The notes beneath the pieces are model-generated. The model searched no databases. It was not told where the DNA came from and saw only the letters and a list, made by a program, of their open reading frames with translations. From positions 1 through 34,917 of the IMG/VR virus record IMGVR_UViG_2541047813_000003: a stretch of DNA of 34,917 nucleotides; one strand, written 5' to 3'. The translations under genes were made by a program, and so were the position numbers. Of the stretch, positions 2,015 through 19,773 are shown piece by piece (position 1 is the first letter of the stretch; each line of letters opens with the position of its first letter). This stretch comes from a virus (taxonomy: Duplodnaviria > Heunggongvirae > Uroviricota > Caudoviricetes).

Positions 2015-2112
2015 CTTCCATTAATCCCTGAATTGTTGGTTAATACGCTTGAGGGTGAATGCGAATAATAGAAAAGGAGCCTGTAGCTCCCTGATGATTT
2101 TGCTTTTCATGT

Positions 2113-2328
2113 TCACCGTTCCTTAAAAACGCCGTTTAACATGCCGATCGCTAGGCTTAAATGAGTCGGTGTGAATCCCATCAGCGTTACCGTTTCGCGG
2201 TGCTTCTTCAGTACGCTACGGCAAATGTCATCGACGTTTTTATCCGGAAACTGCTGTCTGGCTTTTTTGATTTCACAATTAGCCTGACGGGCAATGCTGC
2301 GAAGGGCGTTATTATGTTCTATTGTCAT
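2113..2328 (-). CDS. Hypothetical protein (about 71 aa)
   Basis: Internal ATG at 2328 with GAGG RBS; starts 8 nt after the stop of the upstream TGT-like gene. The longer 117-aa ORF-track version would overlap that gene. Confidence 0.45.
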   Translation of the reverse strand: MTIEHNNALRSIARQANCEIKKARQQFPDKNVDDICRSVLKKHRETVTLMGFTPTHLSLAIGMLNGVFKER

Positions 2329-2335
2329 ATTGGCC

Positions 2336-3088
2336 TCACACTTCGAATGCCAACTGAGGGGTAAAGACGTCCCGTTCAGCGTTGTAATTAAGTGAACTGG
2401 CACTGTTGAATGATTCAATGCGTTCCACAAGAACTTGCGTACGGGTTTCTTTACTTGCGGGAGCATATGGCGAACCTACCCAGGATTTGTCGATGCCTAT
2501 ATTTCTTGCGACGTTCGTGCTGTCTGCAGACGAAAGCGGTACATGAGTAAAAATGTCTTTATTTAACATCCGTAACCCATGAATCTTGGTGATTGGGTAG
2601 CCGTACTGATCTACAACATGACGTATAAGATCGCGTAGTTTAGCCCGACACGCTCTCGGTCGTTTTGCATCGTATTCCCCCATCGAGCCGATGCAGACGC
2701 GGGGAAACTCATGGCACAGACGAATAAATCGCTCATCTGGTTCGTTCATGTGCCACACCGGAGCACCAATAAATTTACCGTGAGGCCATGCCGCAATCAG
2801 GGCGTCATTCTCTTCACTGGTTCCGCCGATAACATCCGGGATAACCGCGAATGAGAAACGAGGGTGATTACCCCAGCGTTCAACAAATCTGTAATATTCA
2901 TTCCAGTCTACGGCCTTGTTTTTTGTCCAGAATGTGAATGCACCATTATCAAGAGCAAATGATTGGGTGACTTCGGAAGCCAGATCAATCTGAGCTGGAT
3001 TAGCAAAACTGATGAATGCGTGTCTGCCTTTCCAGGCTTTCAACGCACAGGTATCGGGAGTTATTGGACCACCGTGAAAATGAATCAT
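2336..3088 (-). CDS. TGT-fold protein, DpdA-like (putative 7-deazaguanine DNA transglycosylase); assignment tentative
   Basis: 250 aa. Motifs in conserved order resembling tRNA-guanine transglycosylase as I recall it: ALDNGAFTF (cf. Tgt LTDSGGFQV), VIPDVIGG, CIGSMGEY, SADSTNVARNIG (cf. Tgt FDCVMPTRNARNG). No Zn-binding CxCxxC...H, as in phage DpdA. Start ATG overlaps the stop of the upstream small ORF (ATGA). Confidence 0.6.
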   Translation of the reverse strand: MIHFHGGPITPDTCALKAWKGRHAFISFANPAQIDLASEVTQSFALDNGAFTFWTKNKAVDWNEYYRFVERWGNHPRFSFAVIPDVIGGTSEENDALIAAWPHGKFIGAPVWHMNEPDERFIRLCHEFPRVCIGSMGEYDAKRPRACRAKLRDLIRHVVDQYGYPITKIHGLRMLNKDIFTHVPLSSADSTNVARNIGIDKSWVGSPYAPASKETRTQVLVERIESFNSASSLNYNAERDVFTPQLAFEV

Positions 3089-3249
3089 ACACTCTCCCGT
3101 TTATTATTTATCTCCTCAGCCAGTCGCTGGGCTTTCAGCGGATTTCGGATAACAGAAGGCCCGGGAAATACCCAGCCTCGCTTTGTAACGGAGTAGACGA
3201 AAGTGATCGCACCTACCCGGATATTATCGTGAGGATGCTTCATCGCCAT
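3085..3249 (-). CDS. Small ORF translationally coupled to exo (lambda orf60a-like)
   Basis: [33 protein letters not shown]...; ATG at 3243 overlaps the exo stop (ATGA), with an alternative in-frame ATG at 3249; stop overlaps the start of the TGT-like gene. Below the ORF-track size cutoff, found by manual translation. Confidence 0.45.
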
Positions 3250-3920
3250 TGCTCCCCAAATACAAAACCAATTTCAGCCAGTGCCTCGTCCATTTTTTCG
3301 ATGAACTCCGGCACCATCTCGTCAAAACTCGCCATGTACTTTTCATCCCGCTCAACCACGACATAATGCAGTCCTTCACGCTTCATACGCGGGTCATAGT
3401 TGGCAAAGTACCAGGCATCTTTTCGCGTCACCCACATGCTGTACTGCACCTGGGCCATGTAAGCTGACTTTATGGCCTCGAAACCACCGAGCCGGAACTT
3501 CATGAAATCCCGGGAGGTAAACGGGCATTTCAGTTCAAGGCCGTTGCCGTCACTGCATAAACCATCTGGAGAGCAGGCGGTACGCATACTTTCGTCGCGA
3601 TAGATGATCGGTGATTCAGTAACATTCACGCCGGAAGTGAACTCAAACAGGGCTCTGGCGTCGTTCTCGTACTGTTTTCCCCAGGCCAGCGCTTTAGCGT
3701 TAACTTCCGGAGCCACACCGGTGCAAACCTCAGCAAGCAGGGTGTGGAAGTAGGACATTTTCATGTCAGGCCACTTTTTTCCGGAGCGGGGTTTTGCTAT
3801 TACGTTATGAACTTCTGAAGCTGTGATGACGCCGAGCCGTAATTTGTGCCACGCATCATCCCCCTGTTCGACAGCTCTCACGTCGATCCCGGTACGCTGC
3901 AGGATAATGTCCGGTGTCAT
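3240..3920 (-). CDS. exo: Lambda exonuclease (Red alpha)
   Basis: 226-aa translation essentially identical to phage lambda Exo as I remember it; overlaps the bet stop. Confidence 0.95.
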
Positions 3921-5079: not shown

Positions 5080-5370
5080 TTAGTGATTCAGGCCGTTGCC
5101 GCGCCCGTCGAGAAAAACTTCCACGAGCAAATCACGGGTATAAGTGCGCTCGATGCCGCGATGCAGATAAAGCCGTCCGCGTAAATTAGCTGATGCAGTC
5201 CAGGTACCATCTTTGTGTTTGACCAGCATTCCTGGCATGACCGCACCTCGATTAACGGTCTGCGTTCCGTAATGTTGATGAACCATAAAAACTCCTGCCC
5301 GTAAGCTGGGCTGCTGAACATATAGAGACTTCTGCGCGTATTCAGGCGGTGGATGGCCGCCGGTTGTCAT
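5080..5370 (-). CDS. Hypothetical protein, first gene downstream of predicted pL (lambda N/kil position)
   Basis: 96 aa from the ATG at 5370 (GAGGCGG RBS about 8 nt upstream). The ORF track extends the frame to a TTG at 5490, adding an arginine-rich stretch (RLREVRGVKRTRERR). Function unknown. Confidence 0.4.
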
Positions 5371-5508
5371 AACTAAGCCGCCTCGTTGAAACGACTGAGG
5401 TATGAAGTGTTGAGTTGATTTCAGCTGGTCACACCGACGTTCACGCGTCCGCTTCACCCCTCGCACTTCCCGAAGCCTGCTGAAATTCAAGCTGCGGACC
5501 TAAGCGGT

Positions 5509-5558
5509 CATCGCAACGGTGAATCAGGTGGTTGCCGTATCGTTGTGTTGTTGCGATG
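5509..5558 (-). promoter_or_regulatory. Stem-loop at the 5' end of the predicted pL transcript
   Basis: On the minus strand CAUCGCAAC ...32 nt... GUUGCGAUG (9-bp perfect inverted repeat), beginning at about +1 of the predicted pL transcript; no U-tract follows, so not a terminator. Confidence 0.3.
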
Positions 5559-5563
5559 AATTT

Positions 5564-5592
5564 ATTTAAAACTATAGTTGTTTTGTTGTCAA
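5564..5592 (-). promoter_or_regulatory. Predicted leftward early promoter pL
   Basis: Minus strand TTGACA (plus 5587-5592), 17-bp spacer, TTAAAT (plus 5564-5569); sits between the repressor-operon terminator and the leftward early genes. Confidence 0.5.
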
Positions 5593-5600
5593 CAACAAAA
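5581..5600. promoter_or_regulatory. Candidate oL operator palindrome overlapping pL -35
   Basis: TTTTGTTG-TCAA-CAACAAAA, 8-bp perfect inverted-repeat arms; further GTTGTT copies across 5577-5640; related to the palindrome at pR. Confidence 0.4.
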
Positions 5601-5729
5601 GTTGTTTTATTGGTTGTTTTAGATGTAACTGGTTGTATTTAGGATGGGTTTATTTTGTGACTTGCATCGCATAGCGATAACTGAAGGGAGATTGTGGTGG
5701 TTTTTTGAACGGTATACGTGATGAGGGGA

Positions 5730-5762
5730 GGGGATAAAAGAAAACCCGGCACGGTGGCCGGG
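5730..5762 (-). terminator. Intrinsic terminator ending the repressor operon
   Basis: Minus-strand hairpin CCCGGC-CACCGU-GCCGGG followed by UUUUCUUUUAU, starting 6 nt after the stop of the 5768-6709 gene. Confidence 0.6.
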
Positions 5763-5767
5763 TATCT

Positions 5768-6709
5768 TTATTCGAATGGAAGATCTATTTGCCTTTGAGG
5801 ATTCAACTGTTTTTTTACATGCTCAATTTCGAATATGGTTTTTATGGCATCTCCGATCATATATTGAGTTACTTTTAAATCTACAAGTAACATATCACCT
5901 TTAGAAAAATTTAAGGTGTTGTTATCAATATCGCTGATGAATTTCTGGTCTTTTATTTCAGCCAAAAAGCTACTGGCACCATCAGAAAACCGCCACCGGC
6001 TTCCTTCATTGAAGGAAATATTTTTAATTTGAAGGGCTTTCTCTACTGTGTACTCTGAAATTATTGATTCTGCTGGTAGATTGACTTTGAAATAATGTGC
6101 TTCTTGCTTGTTGATCGTCATGAATGTCAAACCATCATCGACAGTAGAGGCAAAGCTGTCAATGCCTTCCTGCTCTAATGGCTTACTTATAACTTCTTGT
6201 AATGAAGAGCGAAGTTTAATATTTTTATAAAGTTCAATAACGTTACTGTCGTAGATCTCGCTTTCGTCATCAACAAAGACTTCGATGTTGCTATCAGGCA
6301 AATTGTGTAATTTTTTTATTTTCCTTGGACCTATCCATTTTATCAGTTGAATTAGGCCTTTGCATATTTTTTCTTTAGAACCAGGACAGAGTCCAATAAA
6401 AGCAATCAAATTCGCAGCGGCTGTTGCTGAATCGCCGGATAAAAAATCAACAGCCTGTTTGAACCAAGATGTAGATGAGGCAACCAGATCTATTCCAAAT
6501 GAGCCAGCTTTAAATGATGCATTGACTTTTACAGAAACAACAGTCTTGTTTCCGTAGAGAGTTTTACCGGCTTCCTCTAATGCATCTGATAGTGATAGAA
6601 GGGCAGGAGCAAGGTCTCGCACGTTCATTTCATGCGTTTCCAGTGCCGGACCGTCGTATACTATCCTGAACTTCATATCATTGGTTTCCGAATTGTTGCC
6701 CGCATCCAT
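5768..6709 (-). CDS. Uncharacterized protein (about 313 aa) in the rexAB-equivalent slot, co-oriented with cI
   Basis: ORF 5768-6721 (GTG at 6721); first ATG at 6709 with AGGTGA RBS, alternative ATG at 6676. AT-rich relative to flanks. No recognisable catalytic or membrane motif; the sequence does not remind me of RexA/RexB. Confidence 0.75.
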   Translation of the reverse strand: MDAGNNSETNDMKFRIVYDGPALETHEMNVRDLAPALLSLSDALEEAGKTLYGNKTVVSVKVNASFKAGSFGIDLVASSTSWFKQAVDFLSGDSATAAANLIAFIGLCPGSKEKICKGLIQLIKWIGPRKIKKLHNLPDSNIEVFVDDESEIYDSNVIELYKNIKLRSSLQEVISKPLEQEGIDSFASTVDDGLTFMTINKQEAHYFKVNLPAESIISEYTVEKALQIKNISFNEGSRWRFSDGASSFLAEIKDQKFISDIDNNTLNFSKGDMLLVDLKVTQYMIGDAIKTIFEIEHVKKQLNPQRQIDLPFE

Positions 6710-6782
6710 TATGGCATTCACCTGATCACATATACAGTTAATTTACGATATTGTCTTAAATCTTAAAACTTCTATTGTATGG

Positions 6783-10496: not shown

Positions 10497-10829
10497 ATGA
10501 ATCCTTATATTTATCTTGGTGGTGCAATACTTGCAGAGGTCATTGGTACAACCTTAATGAAGTTTTCAGAAGGTTTTACACGGTTATGGCCATCTGTTGG
10601 TACAATTATTTGTTATTGTGCATCATTCTGGTTATTAGCTCAGACGCTGGCTTATATTCCTACAGGGATTGCTTATGCTATCTGGTCAGGAGTCGGTATT
10701 GTCCTGATTAGCTTACTATCATGGGGATTTTTCGGCCAACGGTTGGACCTGCCAGCCATTATAGGCATGATGTTGATTTGTGCCGGTGTGTTGGTTATTA
10801 ATTTATTGTCACGAAGCACACCACATTAA
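10497..10829 (+). CDS. emrE: SMR-family multidrug efflux transporter EmrE
   Basis: 110 aa from the ATG at 10497 (MNPYIYLGGAILAEVIGTTLMKFSEGF...), matching E. coli EmrE with conserved Glu14 and four TM segments; the ORF track starts at an upstream TTG. Confidence 0.9.
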   Translation: MNPYIYLGGAILAEVIGTTLMKFSEGFTRLWPSVGTIICYCASFWLLAQTLAYIPTGIAYAIWSGVGIVLISLLSWGFFGQRLDLPAIIGMMLICAGVLVINLLSRSTPH

Positions 10830-11084: not shown

Positions 11085-12611
11085 ATGAAAAAAGCCATAG
11101 CATATATGCGATTTTCATCACCAGGTCAGATGTCTGGTGATTCATTAAACCGCCAGAGAAGGCTTATTACTGAATGGCTAAAGGTAAATAGTGATTATTA
11201 CCTTGATACCGTAACGTATGAAGATTTGGGGTTAAGCGCATTCAATGGAAAGCATGCACAATCAGGAGCTTTTTCGGAATTTTTAGATGCTATAGAACAT
11301 GGTTATATATTGCCAGGGACTACATTGTTAGTTGAAAGTCTGGACAGACTTTCAAGAGAAAAAGTCGGTGAAGCGATTGAGCGTCTGAAATTGATTTTGA
11401 ATCACGGTATTGATGTTATAACTCTTTGCGATAATACAGTCTATAATATTGACTCATTGAATGAGCCATATTCATTAATAAAAGCCATACTTATAGCACA
11501 AAGGGCAAATGAAGAAAGCGAGATAAAGTCAAGTCGGGTTAAATTATCATGGAAGAAAAAACGGCAGGATGCACTGGAGTCAGGCACGATTATGACGGCT
11601 TCTTGTCCGAGATGGCTCTCATTGGATGACAAAAGAACGGCTTTTGTTCCAGACCCCGACAGGGTGAAAACTATTGAGCTAATTTTTAAACTCAGGATGG
11701 AAAGGCGCTCATTGAATGCAATAGCCAAGTATTTAAATGATCATGCTGTAAAGAATTTCTCAGGAAAAGAAAGTGCATGGGGACCTTCTGTAATTGAAAA
11801 ATTATTAGCGAATAAAGCTCTGATAGGTATATGCGTACCTTCATATCGTGCAAGAGGGAAAGGGATAAGTGAAATCGCTGGCTATTATCCCAGAGTCATA
11901 TCAGATGATTTGTTTTACGCTGTACAGGAAATTCGGTTGGCACCTTTTGGTATTAGCAATAGTAGCAAGAATCCTATGCTAATAAATCTACTTCGAACAG
12001 TTATGAAGTGTGAGGCTTGTGGTAATACCATGATTGTTCATGCGGTATCTGGAAGTTTGCATGGCTATTATGTTTGTCCGATGAGAAGATTACATCGATG
12101 TGACAGACCATCAATAAAAAGAGATTTGGTTGATTATAATATCATTAATGAATTGCTTTTTAATTGTAGCAAAATTCAACCAGTTGAAAACAAGAAAGAT
12201 GCTAATGAAACTTTAGAGTTAAAAATTATTGAGCTTCAGATGAAAATTAATAATTTAATCGTTGCATTGTCTGTCGCGCCTGAAGTTACCGCTATAGCAG
12301 AGAAAATAAGACTATTAGATAAGGAATTACGAAGGGCTTCGGTATCATTAAAAACTTTGAAGAGTAAAGGGGTGAGTTCACTTGGTGATTTTCATGCTAT
12401 TGATTTAACCAGTAAAAATGGGCGAGAGCTATGTCGTACACTTGCCTATAAAATATTCGAAAAAATTATAATTAATACAGATAATAAAACCTGTGATATC
12501 TATTTTATGAATGGCATTGTTTTTAAACACTATCCTTTAATGAAAGTAATATCCGCCCAGCAGGCGATAAGTACTCTTAAATATATGGTTGATGGTGAGA
12601 TTTATTTTTGA
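11085..12611 (+). CDS. ybcK: Large serine recombinase (DLP12 YbcK-like)
   Basis: 508 aa; N-terminal resolvase/invertase catalytic domain (AIAYMRFSSPGQ...), recombinase domain, Cys-rich zinc ribbon (CEACGN...CPMRRLHRC) and coiled-coil C-terminal region. AT-rich; same neighbourhood as ybcK in DLP12. Confidence 0.8.
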   Translation: MKKAIAYMRFSSPGQMSGDSLNRQRRLITEWLKVNSDYYLDTVTYEDLGLSAFNGKHAQSGAFSEFLDAIEHGYILPGTTLLVESLDRLSREKVGEAIERLKLILNHGIDVITLCDNTVYNIDSLNEPYSLIKAILIAQRANEESEIKSSRVKLSWKKKRQDALESGTIMTASCPRWLSLDDKRTAFVPDPDRVKTIELIFKLRMERRSLNAIAKYLNDHAVKNFSGKESAWGPSVIEKLLANKALIGICVPSYRARGKGISEIAGYYPRVISDDLFYAVQEIRLAPFGISNSSKNPMLINLLRTVMKCEACGNTMIVHAVSGSLHGYYVCPMRRLHRCDRPSIKRDLVDYNIINELLFNCSKIQPVENKKDANETLELKIIELQMKINNLIVALSVAPEVTAIAEKIRLLDKELRRASVSLKTLKSKGVSSLGDFHAIDLTSKNGRELCRTLAYKIFEKIIINTDNKTCDIYFMNGIVFKHYPLMKVISAQQAISTLKYMVDGEIYF

Positions 12612-12935: not shown

Positions 12936-12962
12936 AGCCCGCATAAGTGCGGGCTGCTTTTT
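12936..12962 (+). terminator. Intrinsic terminator-like hairpin
   Basis: AGCCCGCA-TAAG-TGCGGGCT followed by GCTTTTT; lies between the convergent recombinase and esterase genes. Confidence 0.45.
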
Positions 12963-13968
12963 ACAGGTCAGCGTTTGTTTTTTGTTGTTGGGTAGCGGTT
13001 TTTATGGGGGTTCCCAGGTTTTTAGTAAACCACTCAACAACTCTGTTTATAATAATTGGCTGATACCATGTATTATCGCCATGCTCAGCCCCTTCTACCA
13101 GAACGTACTCAGCGTTATCGCCGTTCTTCTTCAACATCCTGAATAGTTTGGCGCTTTGCTCAGGTGAAACCAGAGTGTCTTTGCTACCATGCATAATAAG
13201 AAATGGGGGTTTTACTCCTTTCATATGTCCGATTGGACTGGCGTTTAGCGCTTTTTCTTTTGACGCTGTTATGGGGGCTCCCGCAAAACTTCTGAATGCA
13301 GGGCCATTGATCATTAAGGCTTCGGTTACGGCAGGAGATCGATGAACCTCCTGCACTGATTCAGGGAACCCCTCGCCAATATTCAACAAGTCAGAAATCC
13401 CATAAAGTGTGGCAACTGCCTGAACATCTGCTGATTGCTGAAGAAAGTCACCTTTATTAAAGGTTTTGTCACCATTTGTAGTTCCCATCATCTGGGCAAG
13501 CCATCCACCGGCAGAGTCACCCAGAACTCCGATTCTTTGAGGATCAATCCCATAATCGCTGGCATGTTCTCTCAAGTAACGTATTGCAGCTTTCCCATCC
13601 TCAACTGGTGCTGGAAATGTATCAGGAATTGTTCTGTATTCTACAGCGGCCACAACAAAACCAGCTTCAGCCAGAGCCATTCTCATTTCAATAAATTTGT
13701 CATGTTCAGAAGACATGAATCCGCCGCCGGGATAATAAATAATGGCTGGTTTTAAATCATTTGTTCGCGGGACAAGAACTGACATGTGAAGCTGTCTGAC
13801 AGAACGAGTTCCTTTTATCTGGGAATAAACAACATCACCAATGAGATCGACCTGGTTTCTGGTGGGTGAAACACTAATGATATCTGCACCCGGGGTGTAA
13901 CCAGGAAAATTAGTCTGGACAGGTGTTGCACAACTCCCGACCGACATGGCCATTGACATACCATACAA
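12961..13968 (-). CDS. Alpha/beta-hydrolase fold esterase/lipase (HGGG-type)
   Basis: 335-aa ORF with oxyanion-hole motif YYPGGGF, nucleophile elbow GDSAGG and a C-terminal His (AEHGDN); N-terminus ambiguous (see findings). Confidence 0.8.
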   Translation of the reverse strand: MYGMSMAMSVGSCATPVQTNFPGYTPGADIISVSPTRNQVDLIGDVVYSQIKGTRSVRQLHMSVLVPRTNDLKPAIIYYPGGGFMSSEHDKFIEMRMALAEAGFVVAAVEYRTIPDTFPAPVEDGKAAIRYLREHASDYGIDPQRIGVLGDSAGGWLAQMMGTTNGDKTFNKGDFLQQSADVQAVATLYGISDLLNIGEGFPESVQEVHRSPAVTEALMINGPAFRSFAGAPITASKEKALNASPIGHMKGVKPPFLIMHGSKDTLVSPEQSAKLFRMLKKNGDNAEYVLVEGAEHGDNTWYQPIIINRVVEWFTKNLGTPIKTATQQQKTNADL

Positions 13969-16513: not shown

Positions 16514-17596
16514 TTAGAACTGATAAACCAGACCTACAGCGACGATGTCGTCGGTATCAATACCAGCTGTTTTGGTAAACTTACTATCGTCAATTAAGTT
16601 GATTTTGTAATCAACAAAAGTGGACATGTTTTTATTAAAGTAGTAAGTAGCACCGACATCGACATACTTGACTAAGTCTCGGTCACCATGAACACCAAGG
16701 TCTTTACCTTTTGACTGAAGGTAAGCAACAGATGGTCGCAGACCGAAGTCAAACTGATATTGTGCTACTGCTTCAAAGTTTTGTGCTTTGTTTGCAATAT
16801 GGTTATTACCAAAAACGGTCATATTCTGAGTTTCAGAATATGTGGTAGCCAGATAGATATTGTTCGCATCATATTTCAGGCCTGCAGCCCATACTTCCGC
16901 ATTTTTGCCGGAGGCATTGAATTTGCTCTTACCATAGGCGACCTGACCGTCAGTGCGATCTGATTTAGCATAGGTTGCACCCACGCCGAATCCTTCATAC
17001 TCATAAGTAGTGGAGAAACCGAAACCATCACCATTGGCTTCAGTTACGTCAGTGCGGTCATTTTTACCCTGATACTGAGCAGCAAAGTTCAGGCCATCGA
17101 CCAGACCAAAGAAGTCGTTGTTACGATAAGTTGCAACACCAGTAGTGCGACCAGTCATGAACACATCTGTTTGGGTCCAGGTATCACCACCGAATTCTGG
17201 CAGGACGTCAGTCCACGCACCGATGTCGTATGCTACACCGTAGTTACGGCCGTAATCGATTGAGCCGTAATCACCAAATTTCAGGCCTGCAAATGCAAGA
17301 CGGGTTTTGTCTTTGGAAGAACCTTGAGATTCAGCACGGTTGCCTTTGAATTCATATTCCCACTGACCGAAACCAGTCAGTTGATCGTTGATTTGGGTTT
17401 CACCTTTGAAGCCAAGACGGGCATAAGTAGTATCACCATCATCTGCATCATTAGAGGAAAAGTAGTGCTTGGCATTAACTTTCCCGTATAGATCCAGCTT
17501 GTTACTGTCTTTATTATAAATTTCAGCTGCCTGAGCAGACATCGCCATCAGTACTGATGCAGCTACAGCAGAAATTGCCACTGTTAATTTTTTCAT
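16514..17596 (-). CDS. nmpC: Outer-membrane general porin (OmpC/OmpF family; NmpC/OmpD-like)
   Basis: 360 aa; signal peptide [23 protein letters not shown]; porin hallmarks including the C-terminal VGLVYQF beta-strand; antisense between Q and the lysis genes as in DLP12; intact here. Confidence 0.9.
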
Positions 17597-19479: not shown

Positions 19480-19773
19480 TTATTGTGAGCAATAGACACG
19501 CGCTTCCAGCGGAGTATAAATGCCTAAAGTAATAAAACCGAGCAATCCATTTACGAATGTTTGCTGGGTTTCTGTTTTAACAACATTTTCTGCGCCGCCA
19601 CAAATTTTGGCTGCATCAACAGTTTTCTCCTGTCCAATTCCCGAAACGAAGAAATGATGGGTGATGGTTTCCTTTGGTGTTACTGCTGTCGGTTTGTTTC
19701 CAACAGTAAACGTCTGTTGAGCACATCCTGTAATAAGCATTGCCAGAGCGGCAGAAAACAACATTTTTTTCAT
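19480..19773 (-). CDS. bor: Bor lipoprotein (serum-resistance family)
   Basis: 97 aa from the ATG at 19773 (MKKMLFSAALAMLITGCAQQTF...); lipobox ITGC; near-identical to lambda Bor. Confidence 0.9.
   Translation of the reverse strand: MKKMLFSAALAMLITGCAQQTFTVGNKPTAVTPKETITHHFFVSGIGQEKTVDAAKICGGAENVVKTETQQTFVNGLLGFITLGIYTPLEARVYCSQ

Follow-up and report, generated by a model that had tools for sequence, protein, structure and literature searches.

The 34,917-nucleotide (nt) stretch of viral DNA analyzed here (IMG/VR record IMGVR_UViG_2541047813_000003, Caudoviricetes; hereinafter, the window) encompasses, at positions 2113-3249, three closely packed minus-strand open reading frames (ORFs) that are located directly 3' of a lambda-type exo gene. 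The subject of this analysis is the middle one, which encodes a protein of 250 amino acids (aa) that had originally been predicted to be a DpdA-type member of the tRNA-guanine transglycosylase (TGT) superfamily, i.e., a relative of the phage enzymes that insert 7-deazaguanine bases into DNA, and to be part of a DNA modification module coupled to the Red recombination genes. Both the fold and the family relationships described below support the assignment of this protein to the phage DpdA family. The first 9 kb of the window are 100% identical to a lambdoid prophage that is located beside icd in several Escherichia coli genomes (e.g., YP3), and the gene names used here come from the annotation of this identical prophage by the Prokaryotic Genome Annotation Pipeline (PGAP). 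The gene order is int, xis, DUF4222, TraR/DksA-like, orf71, the 250-aa gene, DUF1317, exo, bet, gam, kil-like, a 317-aa gene and the S24 repressor gene, which places the 250-aa gene in the variable accessory region, from exo to xis, of the leftward early operon (Table 1). It is thus a stand-alone accessory gene in the non-essential exo-xis region of an E. coli lambdoid prophage at icd, and is found at 99% or higher identity in 100 of the 5426 complete E. coli genomes.

Table 1. Genes, codons and signals at the locus of the DpdA-like gene (window coordinates)
Feature	Position	Strand	Source or remark
DpdA-family gene, 250 aa, gamma-proteobacterial singleton subgroup	2336..3088	-	RefSeq 'hypothetical protein' WP_000581109.1
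Small DUF1317 ORF, 52 aa from ATG 3243 (alternative ATG 3249)	3085..3243	-	Pfam, PGAP
71-aa ORF, PHROG 303, function not assigned	2113..2328	-	PHROG match, PGAP
Lambda exonuclease (exo), last Red gene; upstream, same leftward operon	3240..3920	-	PGAP 'lambda exonuclease family protein'
Terminator-like hairpin followed by a T-run, just 3' of the 71-aa ORF	2074..2092	-	Predicted, consensus scan alone
Codons L46-D47-N48-G49-A50-F51, D-x-G-[GA]-F motif; D47 putative general acid/base, F51 putative base-stacking residue	2936..2953	-	
Codons S187-A188-D189-S190-T191-N192; D189 putative nucleophile	2513..2530	-	Likely partner is H170, 19 residues upstream

The chaining of exo, the small ORF and the 250-aa gene by stop/start overlaps can be read directly from the sequence, with an ATGA at each junction. 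The 3' end of exo is ...CAA TGG CGA TGA, with the stop codon at 3242-3240. Between the two candidate ATG codons of the DUF1317 ORF, at 3249 and 3243, the latter is preferred because both the PGAP start and the Pfam match (1.5e-32, beginning at residue 3 of the ORF) point there, and it is with this start that the overlap with exo is ATGA. The DUF1317 ORF ends with GTA TGA and the 250-aa ORF begins with ATG ATT, which yields the second ATGA overlap, at 3088-3085; a GGAG is located approximately 8 nt 5' of this start. Between the TGA stop of the 250-aa ORF, at 2338-2336, and the ATG of the 71-aa ORF, at 2328, there are 7 nt (ggccaat), so that the spacing of 8 nt given originally differs by counting convention only and involves no error. 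The gene overlaps assign the 250-aa gene to the leftward early operon, where it follows gam, bet and exo; the ATGA overlaps are a matter of ordinary phage operon packing and point to early expression, not to a functional partnership. The record of Shigella phage SfI contains a 117-aa ORF, SfI_0033 (window 2113-2466, minus strand), which overlaps the 3' end of the DpdA-like gene; this ORF was rejected as the true downstream gene given that PGAP and the PHROG 303 match both back the 71-aa form.

The 250-aa protein carries SFALDNGAFTFW and LSSADSTNVARNIG. Both motifs quoted in the original prediction, ALDNGAFTF and SADSTNVARNIG, are present in its translation, and the two Tgt strings with which they had been compared, LTDSGGFQV and FDCVMPTRNARNG, are found in the translated tgt gene of E. 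coli MG1655. The claim that the protein has no Zn-binding cysteine cluster also holds: there are only four cysteines, scattered over positions 14, 125, 132 and 147.

The 250-aa ORF is a real gene under strong purifying selection. Its homologs form 6182 clusters at 90% identity and 1591 clusters at 50% identity. In a comparison with 28 homologs, protein identity is 83-91% and nucleotide identity just 71-76%, nonsynonymous divergence (dN) is 0.07-0.14 with the synonymous sites saturated, and none of the 28 contains an internal stop. In an alignment of 58 diverse family members, the most distant of which are 32% identical to the window protein, complete conservation is seen at D47, H170, D189 and S190, and near-complete conservation at H5, A50, P84, D85, H113, E116, G134, L172 and R173.

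The family assignment is based on profile comparisons. The window protein matches PHROG 887 ("queuine tRNA-ribosyltransferase") at 4e-99, and the same PHROG is matched by the validated DpdA of phage CAjan (gp35; 8.2e-96) and by the DpdA of Salmonella phage 7-11 (7.1e-74); deletion of CAjan dpdA removes dPreQ0 from the phage DNA (PMC6884629). An hhalign comparison of the 58-sequence family alignment with CAjan DpdA gave a probability of 98.95% (E 9.8e-18, 172 columns) and paired LDNGAF with LDSGAF, PVWH with PCFH, IGS with IGG, KIHGLRM with KLHAFGI, and SADST with SCDSS. These pairings delineate motifs that are shared with the DpdA1 proteins of CAjan and phage 9g, namely D-x-G-A-F, P-x-(W/F)-H, I-G-(G/S), K-(I/L)-H and S-x-D-S. 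Direct BLASTP comparison with the 7-11 DpdA showed 36% identity (E 1e-36). The predicted structural model is a TIM barrel with the TGT-like (beta/alpha)8 fold. Thus, the profile and structure comparisons put the protein inside the TGT superfamily, specifically in the phage DpdA family, in agreement with the DpdA-type assignment made originally. Within this family, the window protein and CAjan DpdA are distant (approximately 19% identity), the former is 56 residues shorter (250 vs 306 aa), mostly at the C-terminus, and the window gene, in contrast to those of CAjan and 9g, has no adjacent folE, queD, queE, queC or yhhQ.

The putative active site could be delineated by comparison with bacterial DpdA (bDpdA), in which the general acid/base is D95, the residue stacking on the base is F99, the nucleophile is D256, D130 and H181 read the guanine edge, and G206/G207 form the loop for the 7-substituent; the D95A and D256A substitutions each abolish guanine exchange (PMC10164549). 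In the window protein, D47, F51, D85, H113, the G134 loop, the H170/L172 region and D189 follow the same order with similar spacing, and each of these positions is located at, or just past, the C-terminal end of a beta strand in the predicted model. The spacing of D47 and F51 (+4) is that of bDpdA D95/F99 and of E. coli Tgt DSGGF, and the offsets of D189, R195 and N196 (D, +6, +7) agree with D264, R270 and N271 in FDCVMPTRN of Tgt. In the hhalign alignment, D47 corresponds to the LDSGAF motif of CAjan DpdA and D189 to the SCDSS motif. From motif and spacing, we infer putative roles of acid/base for D47, stacking for F51 and nucleophile for D189, with D47 and D189 equivalent to bDpdA D95 and D256, respectively. 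D85 and H113, which are near-invariant and suitably spaced, are candidates for guanine-edge reading. Cap10, which has an Asp/His catalytic pair, D248/H226 (10.1101/2025.04.06.647259), may offer a counterpart to the H170/D189 pair.

Comparison with the better studied members of the superfamily shows both relatedness and divergence. [quoted passage not shown] The Asp, Phe, Asp, His, Gly and Asp positions of the window protein are spaced similarly to D95, F99, D130, H181, G206 and D256 of bacterial DpdA (Salmonella Montevideo, PDB 7UI4), whereas the window protein has no match to the PADLOC DpdA model or to NCBIfam and no structural Zn site. The 7UI4 target chain has 413 residues compared to 250 in the window protein, from which the DpdA-specific insertions are therefore missing. 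Furthermore, the prophage encodes, according to PGAP, no dpdB (the gene for the DpdB ATPase partner), no dpdC and no dpd cluster. The missing cysteine cluster sets the window protein apart from Tgt and bDpdA but not from functional phage DpdA, because CAjan DpdA likewise lacks it. The nearest solved fold is that of Cap10 from the type IV cyclic oligonucleotide-based antiphage signaling system (CBASS; PDB 9NTN), which has the conserved Asp/His pair and an Asp-rich base-reading pocket. The identity in the structural alignment with Cap10 is 9% and the resemblance is confined to the fold; besides, the window gene is phage-encoded and not part of a defense island, and PGAP finds no genes for Cap9 (QueC-like) or a CD-NTase in the prophage.

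The DpdA-like gene of the window is already known. Its product is the same, at 100% identity, as SfI_0034 of Shigella phage SfI. This phage appears in Supplementary Data 1 of Hutinet et al. 2019 as "NC_027339 Enterobacteria phage SfI YP_009147480", an entry of the DpdA column for which none of the pathway columns is filled. Given that the SfI genome has only one matching place, YP_009147480 can be taken to be the SfI copy of the window protein, and hence, the gene was already catalogued as a lone DpdA in 2019. The same table includes HK106, SPN3UB, BTP1, SEN1, 7-11, SE131, PEAT2 and Athena1; the proteins of all of these except HK106, which is not among the matches listed, are homologs of the window protein. 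In that classification, the 'third group' consists of 76 DpdA-only phages. Among the gamma-proteobacterial singletons, identity to the window protein is, besides the 100% for SfI, 68% for BTP1 and SPN3UB, 66% for Athena1, 39% for SEN1 and 36% for 7-11; the genomes of these phages, like the window, encode no preQ0 or G+ synthesis genes, and their hosts possess the queuosine pathway. The window copy differs from that of SfI in that it is located in an E. coli prophage at icd with an immunity region unlike that of SfI, and in nothing else of substance. A search of the literature found no experimental test of a singleton DpdA from a temperate enterobacterial or lambdoid phage. Phage annotation pipelines already label this family "queuine tRNA-ribosyltransferase"; in each of the 100 complete E. 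coli genomes with the gene, its product is a 'hypothetical protein' in RefSeq, and therefore, this annotation could be improved.

In accord with the original prediction, the window contains no genes of the preQ0 pathway: PGAP annotation of the identical prophage names none, and a tblastn search of the window with FolE, QueD, QueC, QueE and YhhQ of CAjan produced a best E value of 0.16. The same holds for relatives of this locus: among the 80 related IMG/VR loci that contain a homolog at least 83% identical to the window protein, none has a preQ0 or G+ synthesis gene within 10 kb on either side. Modification of DNA from the host preQ0 or preQ1 pool is nonetheless plausible for the window protein, by analogy, because phage DpdAs are capable of precisely this when expressed alone in E. 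coli. Specifically, the 9g DpdA yields 790 dPreQ0 per 10^6 nt in plasmid DNA (PMC6884629), DpdA2 of nt-1 yields 926-1607 per 10^6 nt, dropping to zero in a queD mutant, and DpdA2 of VH7D yields 2765 dPreQ1 per 10^6 nt (PMC10516641). All DpdAs tested to date insert a 7-deazaguanine (PMC10516641), and DpdA-only phages generally have hosts with the complete queuosine (Q) pathway (PMC6884629).

Examination of the neighborhoods bears on whether the gene belongs to a module. Adjacency was counted over 77 related loci; just 30 of these have DUF1317 immediately upstream of the DpdA-like gene, and just 17 have the 71-aa ORF immediately downstream. Many of the related loci have no Red genes nearby, and homologs are also present in P22-like and P2-like phages as well as in lytic Vibrio and Salmonella phages. 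We therefore rejected DUF1317 and the 71-aa ORF as obligate partners. Because its neighbors differ between phages, the proposed Red-coupled modification module is actually a single mobile accessory gene: the ATGA coupling is real in this lineage, but it is not conserved, and what moves is one gene, not a multi-gene module. In Vibrio phage K391, the homolog lies among genes for a helicase, a primase and a DNA methyltransferase. Another vibriophage, K394, encodes a longer DpdA-like protein of 339 aa (L008, 6449-7468) between head-completion genes and a tRNA gene, not among the early genes.

Two family members are fusion proteins. One is a fusion with QueD (PF01242, 1.2e-24), a 335-aa protein encoded on a high-GC phage-like contig from JGI metagenome 3300041077 (L005, 2840-3847), in which a complete QueD/PTPS domain is joined to a DpdA-like domain missing approximately its first 25 residues; among the neighboring genes, no further que genes were recognized. 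The other is a fusion with a Dam-type D12 DNA adenine methyltransferase (PF02086, 8.6e-62), 421 aa long and encoded in a P2/186-like prophage (L006, 8001-9266; Logan SRR27214370) directly upstream of the replication gene gpA. Here the methyltransferase is cut shortly past the DPPY motif and the DpdA-like domain begins at the DNGAF motif, so that this protein may have arisen by a deletion that joined two adjacent DNA modification genes. The fusions weakly connect the wider family with both DNA modification and the deazaguanine pathway, given that each protein comes from a single contig and is devoid of the first beta strands of the barrel.

Taken together, these observations lead us to favor, with moderate confidence, the view that the gene encodes an active DpdA of the singleton subgroup, expressed from the leftward early operon, that replaces guanine in phage DNA with preQ0 or preQ1 of the host in a motif-specific manner and at a low level, affording partial protection from restriction. 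Under this scenario, the DpdA-like protein would be made alongside the recombination genes following induction or infection and would act post-replicatively on double-stranded phage DNA. D189 would displace guanine at particular sequence motifs, forming a covalent enzyme-DNA intermediate that would be resolved by a host-made 7-deazaguanine base, either preQ0 from QueC or preQ1 from QueF, with D47 serving as the base. The level of modification would probably be low, well below 1% of G as with DpdAs expressed alone, because the enzyme would draw on a small host pool. No level comparable to that in CAjan, where approximately 32% of G is replaced by dPreQ0 (PMC6884629), is expected for the window phage. 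The benefit would be partial protection of the packaged DNA against restriction.

Several lines of evidence weigh against this scenario. Hutinet et al. 2019 noted that the singleton clusters, including the gamma-proteobacterial one, may have diverged in function. Salmonella phage 7-11 contains just 50 dADG per 10^6 nt and no dPreQ0, and mycobacteriophage Orion, from the Mycobacterium singleton cluster, shows no modification, in a setting where neither the phage nor the host makes preQ0 (PMC6884629); no member of the gamma-proteobacterial singleton subgroup is known to modify DNA substantially. At the active site, the base-reading Asp of CAjan DpdA falls, in the hhalign alignment, 3 columns after D85, opposite a Gly of the window protein, and because of this offset, the equivalence of D85 to bDpdA D130 depends on spacing. 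Both fusion proteins could be deletion chimeras. Finally, simple sequence methods make no link from the window protein to Tgt or bDpdA. Pfam and NCBIfam scans of the 250-aa protein gave no relevant match, a Pfam scan of the 58 family members with an E cutoff of 1 gave no match, PF01702 included, and the PADLOC DpdA model did not match the window protein at E up to 10. Searches of the PDB sequences with phmmer and with hmmsearch of the profile produced only chance matches (HipT and GCN4 constructs), and hhalign of the family profile with the single E. coli Tgt sequence found no match. The Pfam result says nothing about DpdA membership, because the validated CAjan DpdA, like that of 7-11, has no Pfam match either; it therefore rules out Tgt proper but not the TGT superfamily. 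A phmmer search of the PDB sequences with CAjan DpdA likewise found nothing.

The main alternative is a scenario, in our assessment considerably less likely than DNA modification from the host pool, in which the singletons retain the guanine/7-deazaguanine pocket but have acquired a new target, such as tRNA base exchange or binding, or a protein-linked 7-deazaguanine as in Cap10; in its phage version, such a protein could interfere with deazaguanine-based immunity (type IV CBASS or QatABCD). Cap10 provides a precedent, being a remodeled TGT fold, with a conserved Asp/His pair, that binds protein-linked 7-amido-7-deazaguanine (10.1101/2025.04.06.647259), and H170 and D189 are invariant here. 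The singletons also form a separate cluster in the similarity network, with functional divergence raised by Hutinet et al., the related phage 7-11 is almost devoid of DNA modification, and there are no que genes beside the gene in the 80 loci. Yet the sequence homology is to a DNA-modifying phage DpdA (E 1e-17, same PHROG), compared to the 9% identity to Cap10 in the structural alignment, and PGAP shows no Cap9, CD-NTase or Qat partner in the window. The gene contexts point to DNA metabolism as well (the Red genes here, the helicase, primase and methyltransferase genes in K391, the Dam fusion beside gpA). A more far-reaching proposition is that the lone DpdAs of temperate gamma-proteobacterial phages as a whole do not serve to camouflage DNA and have been repurposed, e.g., to capture or pass on 7-deazaguanines, either free or linked to protein, and thereby to disarm type IV CBASS or QatABCD, or to install a base other than preQ0 or preQ1. 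We deem this improbable and keep it in consideration because Cap10 is the nearest solved fold, the subgroup is a cluster of its own, and 7-11, the one tested gamma-proteobacterial relative, barely modifies its DNA.

It is similarly doubtful that the enzyme works on DNA without any 7-deazaguanine, through guanine exchange or through glycosylase-like creation of abasic sites, in replication, recombination or host takeover as opposed to protection from restriction. The chaining to recombination genes, the conserved catalytic Asp pair and the failure to find deazaguanine supply genes would all fit such a role, and bDpdA/B indeed catalyzes guanine exchange in vitro (PMC10164549). The linkage to exo and DUF1317 is not conserved, though, as the adjacency counts and the many loci devoid of Red genes make clear; unchecked abasic sites would damage the phage's own DNA, and insertion of a 7-deazaguanine by every DpdA tested so far speaks for modification proper. 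As for an inactive remnant in a variable region of lambdoid prophages, this is a strongly disfavored explanation that we find barely credible. It is suggested by the 'hypothetical protein' label that the gene carries in RefSeq and in all other sources and by the shortness of the protein relative to CAjan DpdA and to the bDpdA chain in 7UI4. A decaying remnant is, however, argued against by the strong purifying selection, evident from the low dN, the saturated synonymous sites and the intact frames of all 28 compared homologs; moreover, the catalytic residues are invariant in the 58-member alignment, and the family comprises thousands of clusters.

The gene bears on the question posed in 2019, namely, whether singleton DpdAs mark phage DNA using the queuosine-precursor pool of the host or have taken on another function, for which an inducible E. 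coli lambdoid prophage, with que mutants at hand, is a convenient system. If the gene is active, low-level, motif-specific 7-deazaguanine marks on the DNA of a temperate phage would bear on restriction evasion and also on sensitivity to the recently described defenses against deazaguanine-containing DNA, such as the Dag glycosylases.

Several other features of the prophage deserve mention. The 317-aa 'hypothetical' gene (window 5768-6721, minus strand) is flanked by the kil-like gene and the gene for the S24 (cI-like) repressor, i.e., lies in the position of rexAB in lambda, and matches the PADLOC candidate defense family PDC-S42 (E 3.4e-86); a role as an anti-phage gene, encoded by the prophage and expressed in the lysogen, is probable. 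In the PGAP annotation, no N-like antiterminator gene is present from the repressor gene to kil/gam/bet/exo (window 5287-5767 and 6722-6782), and terminator-like hairpins are predicted on the minus strand at 5763-5744 and 5055-5038. The cargo of the prophage, as annotated by PGAP, consists of emrE (SMR efflux; window 10497-10829), a ybcK-like serine recombinase gene (11085-12611), an alpha/beta hydrolase gene (12961-13953), an ompC-like porin gene (16514-17596) and iss/bor, which encodes a serum survival lipoprotein (19480-19773).

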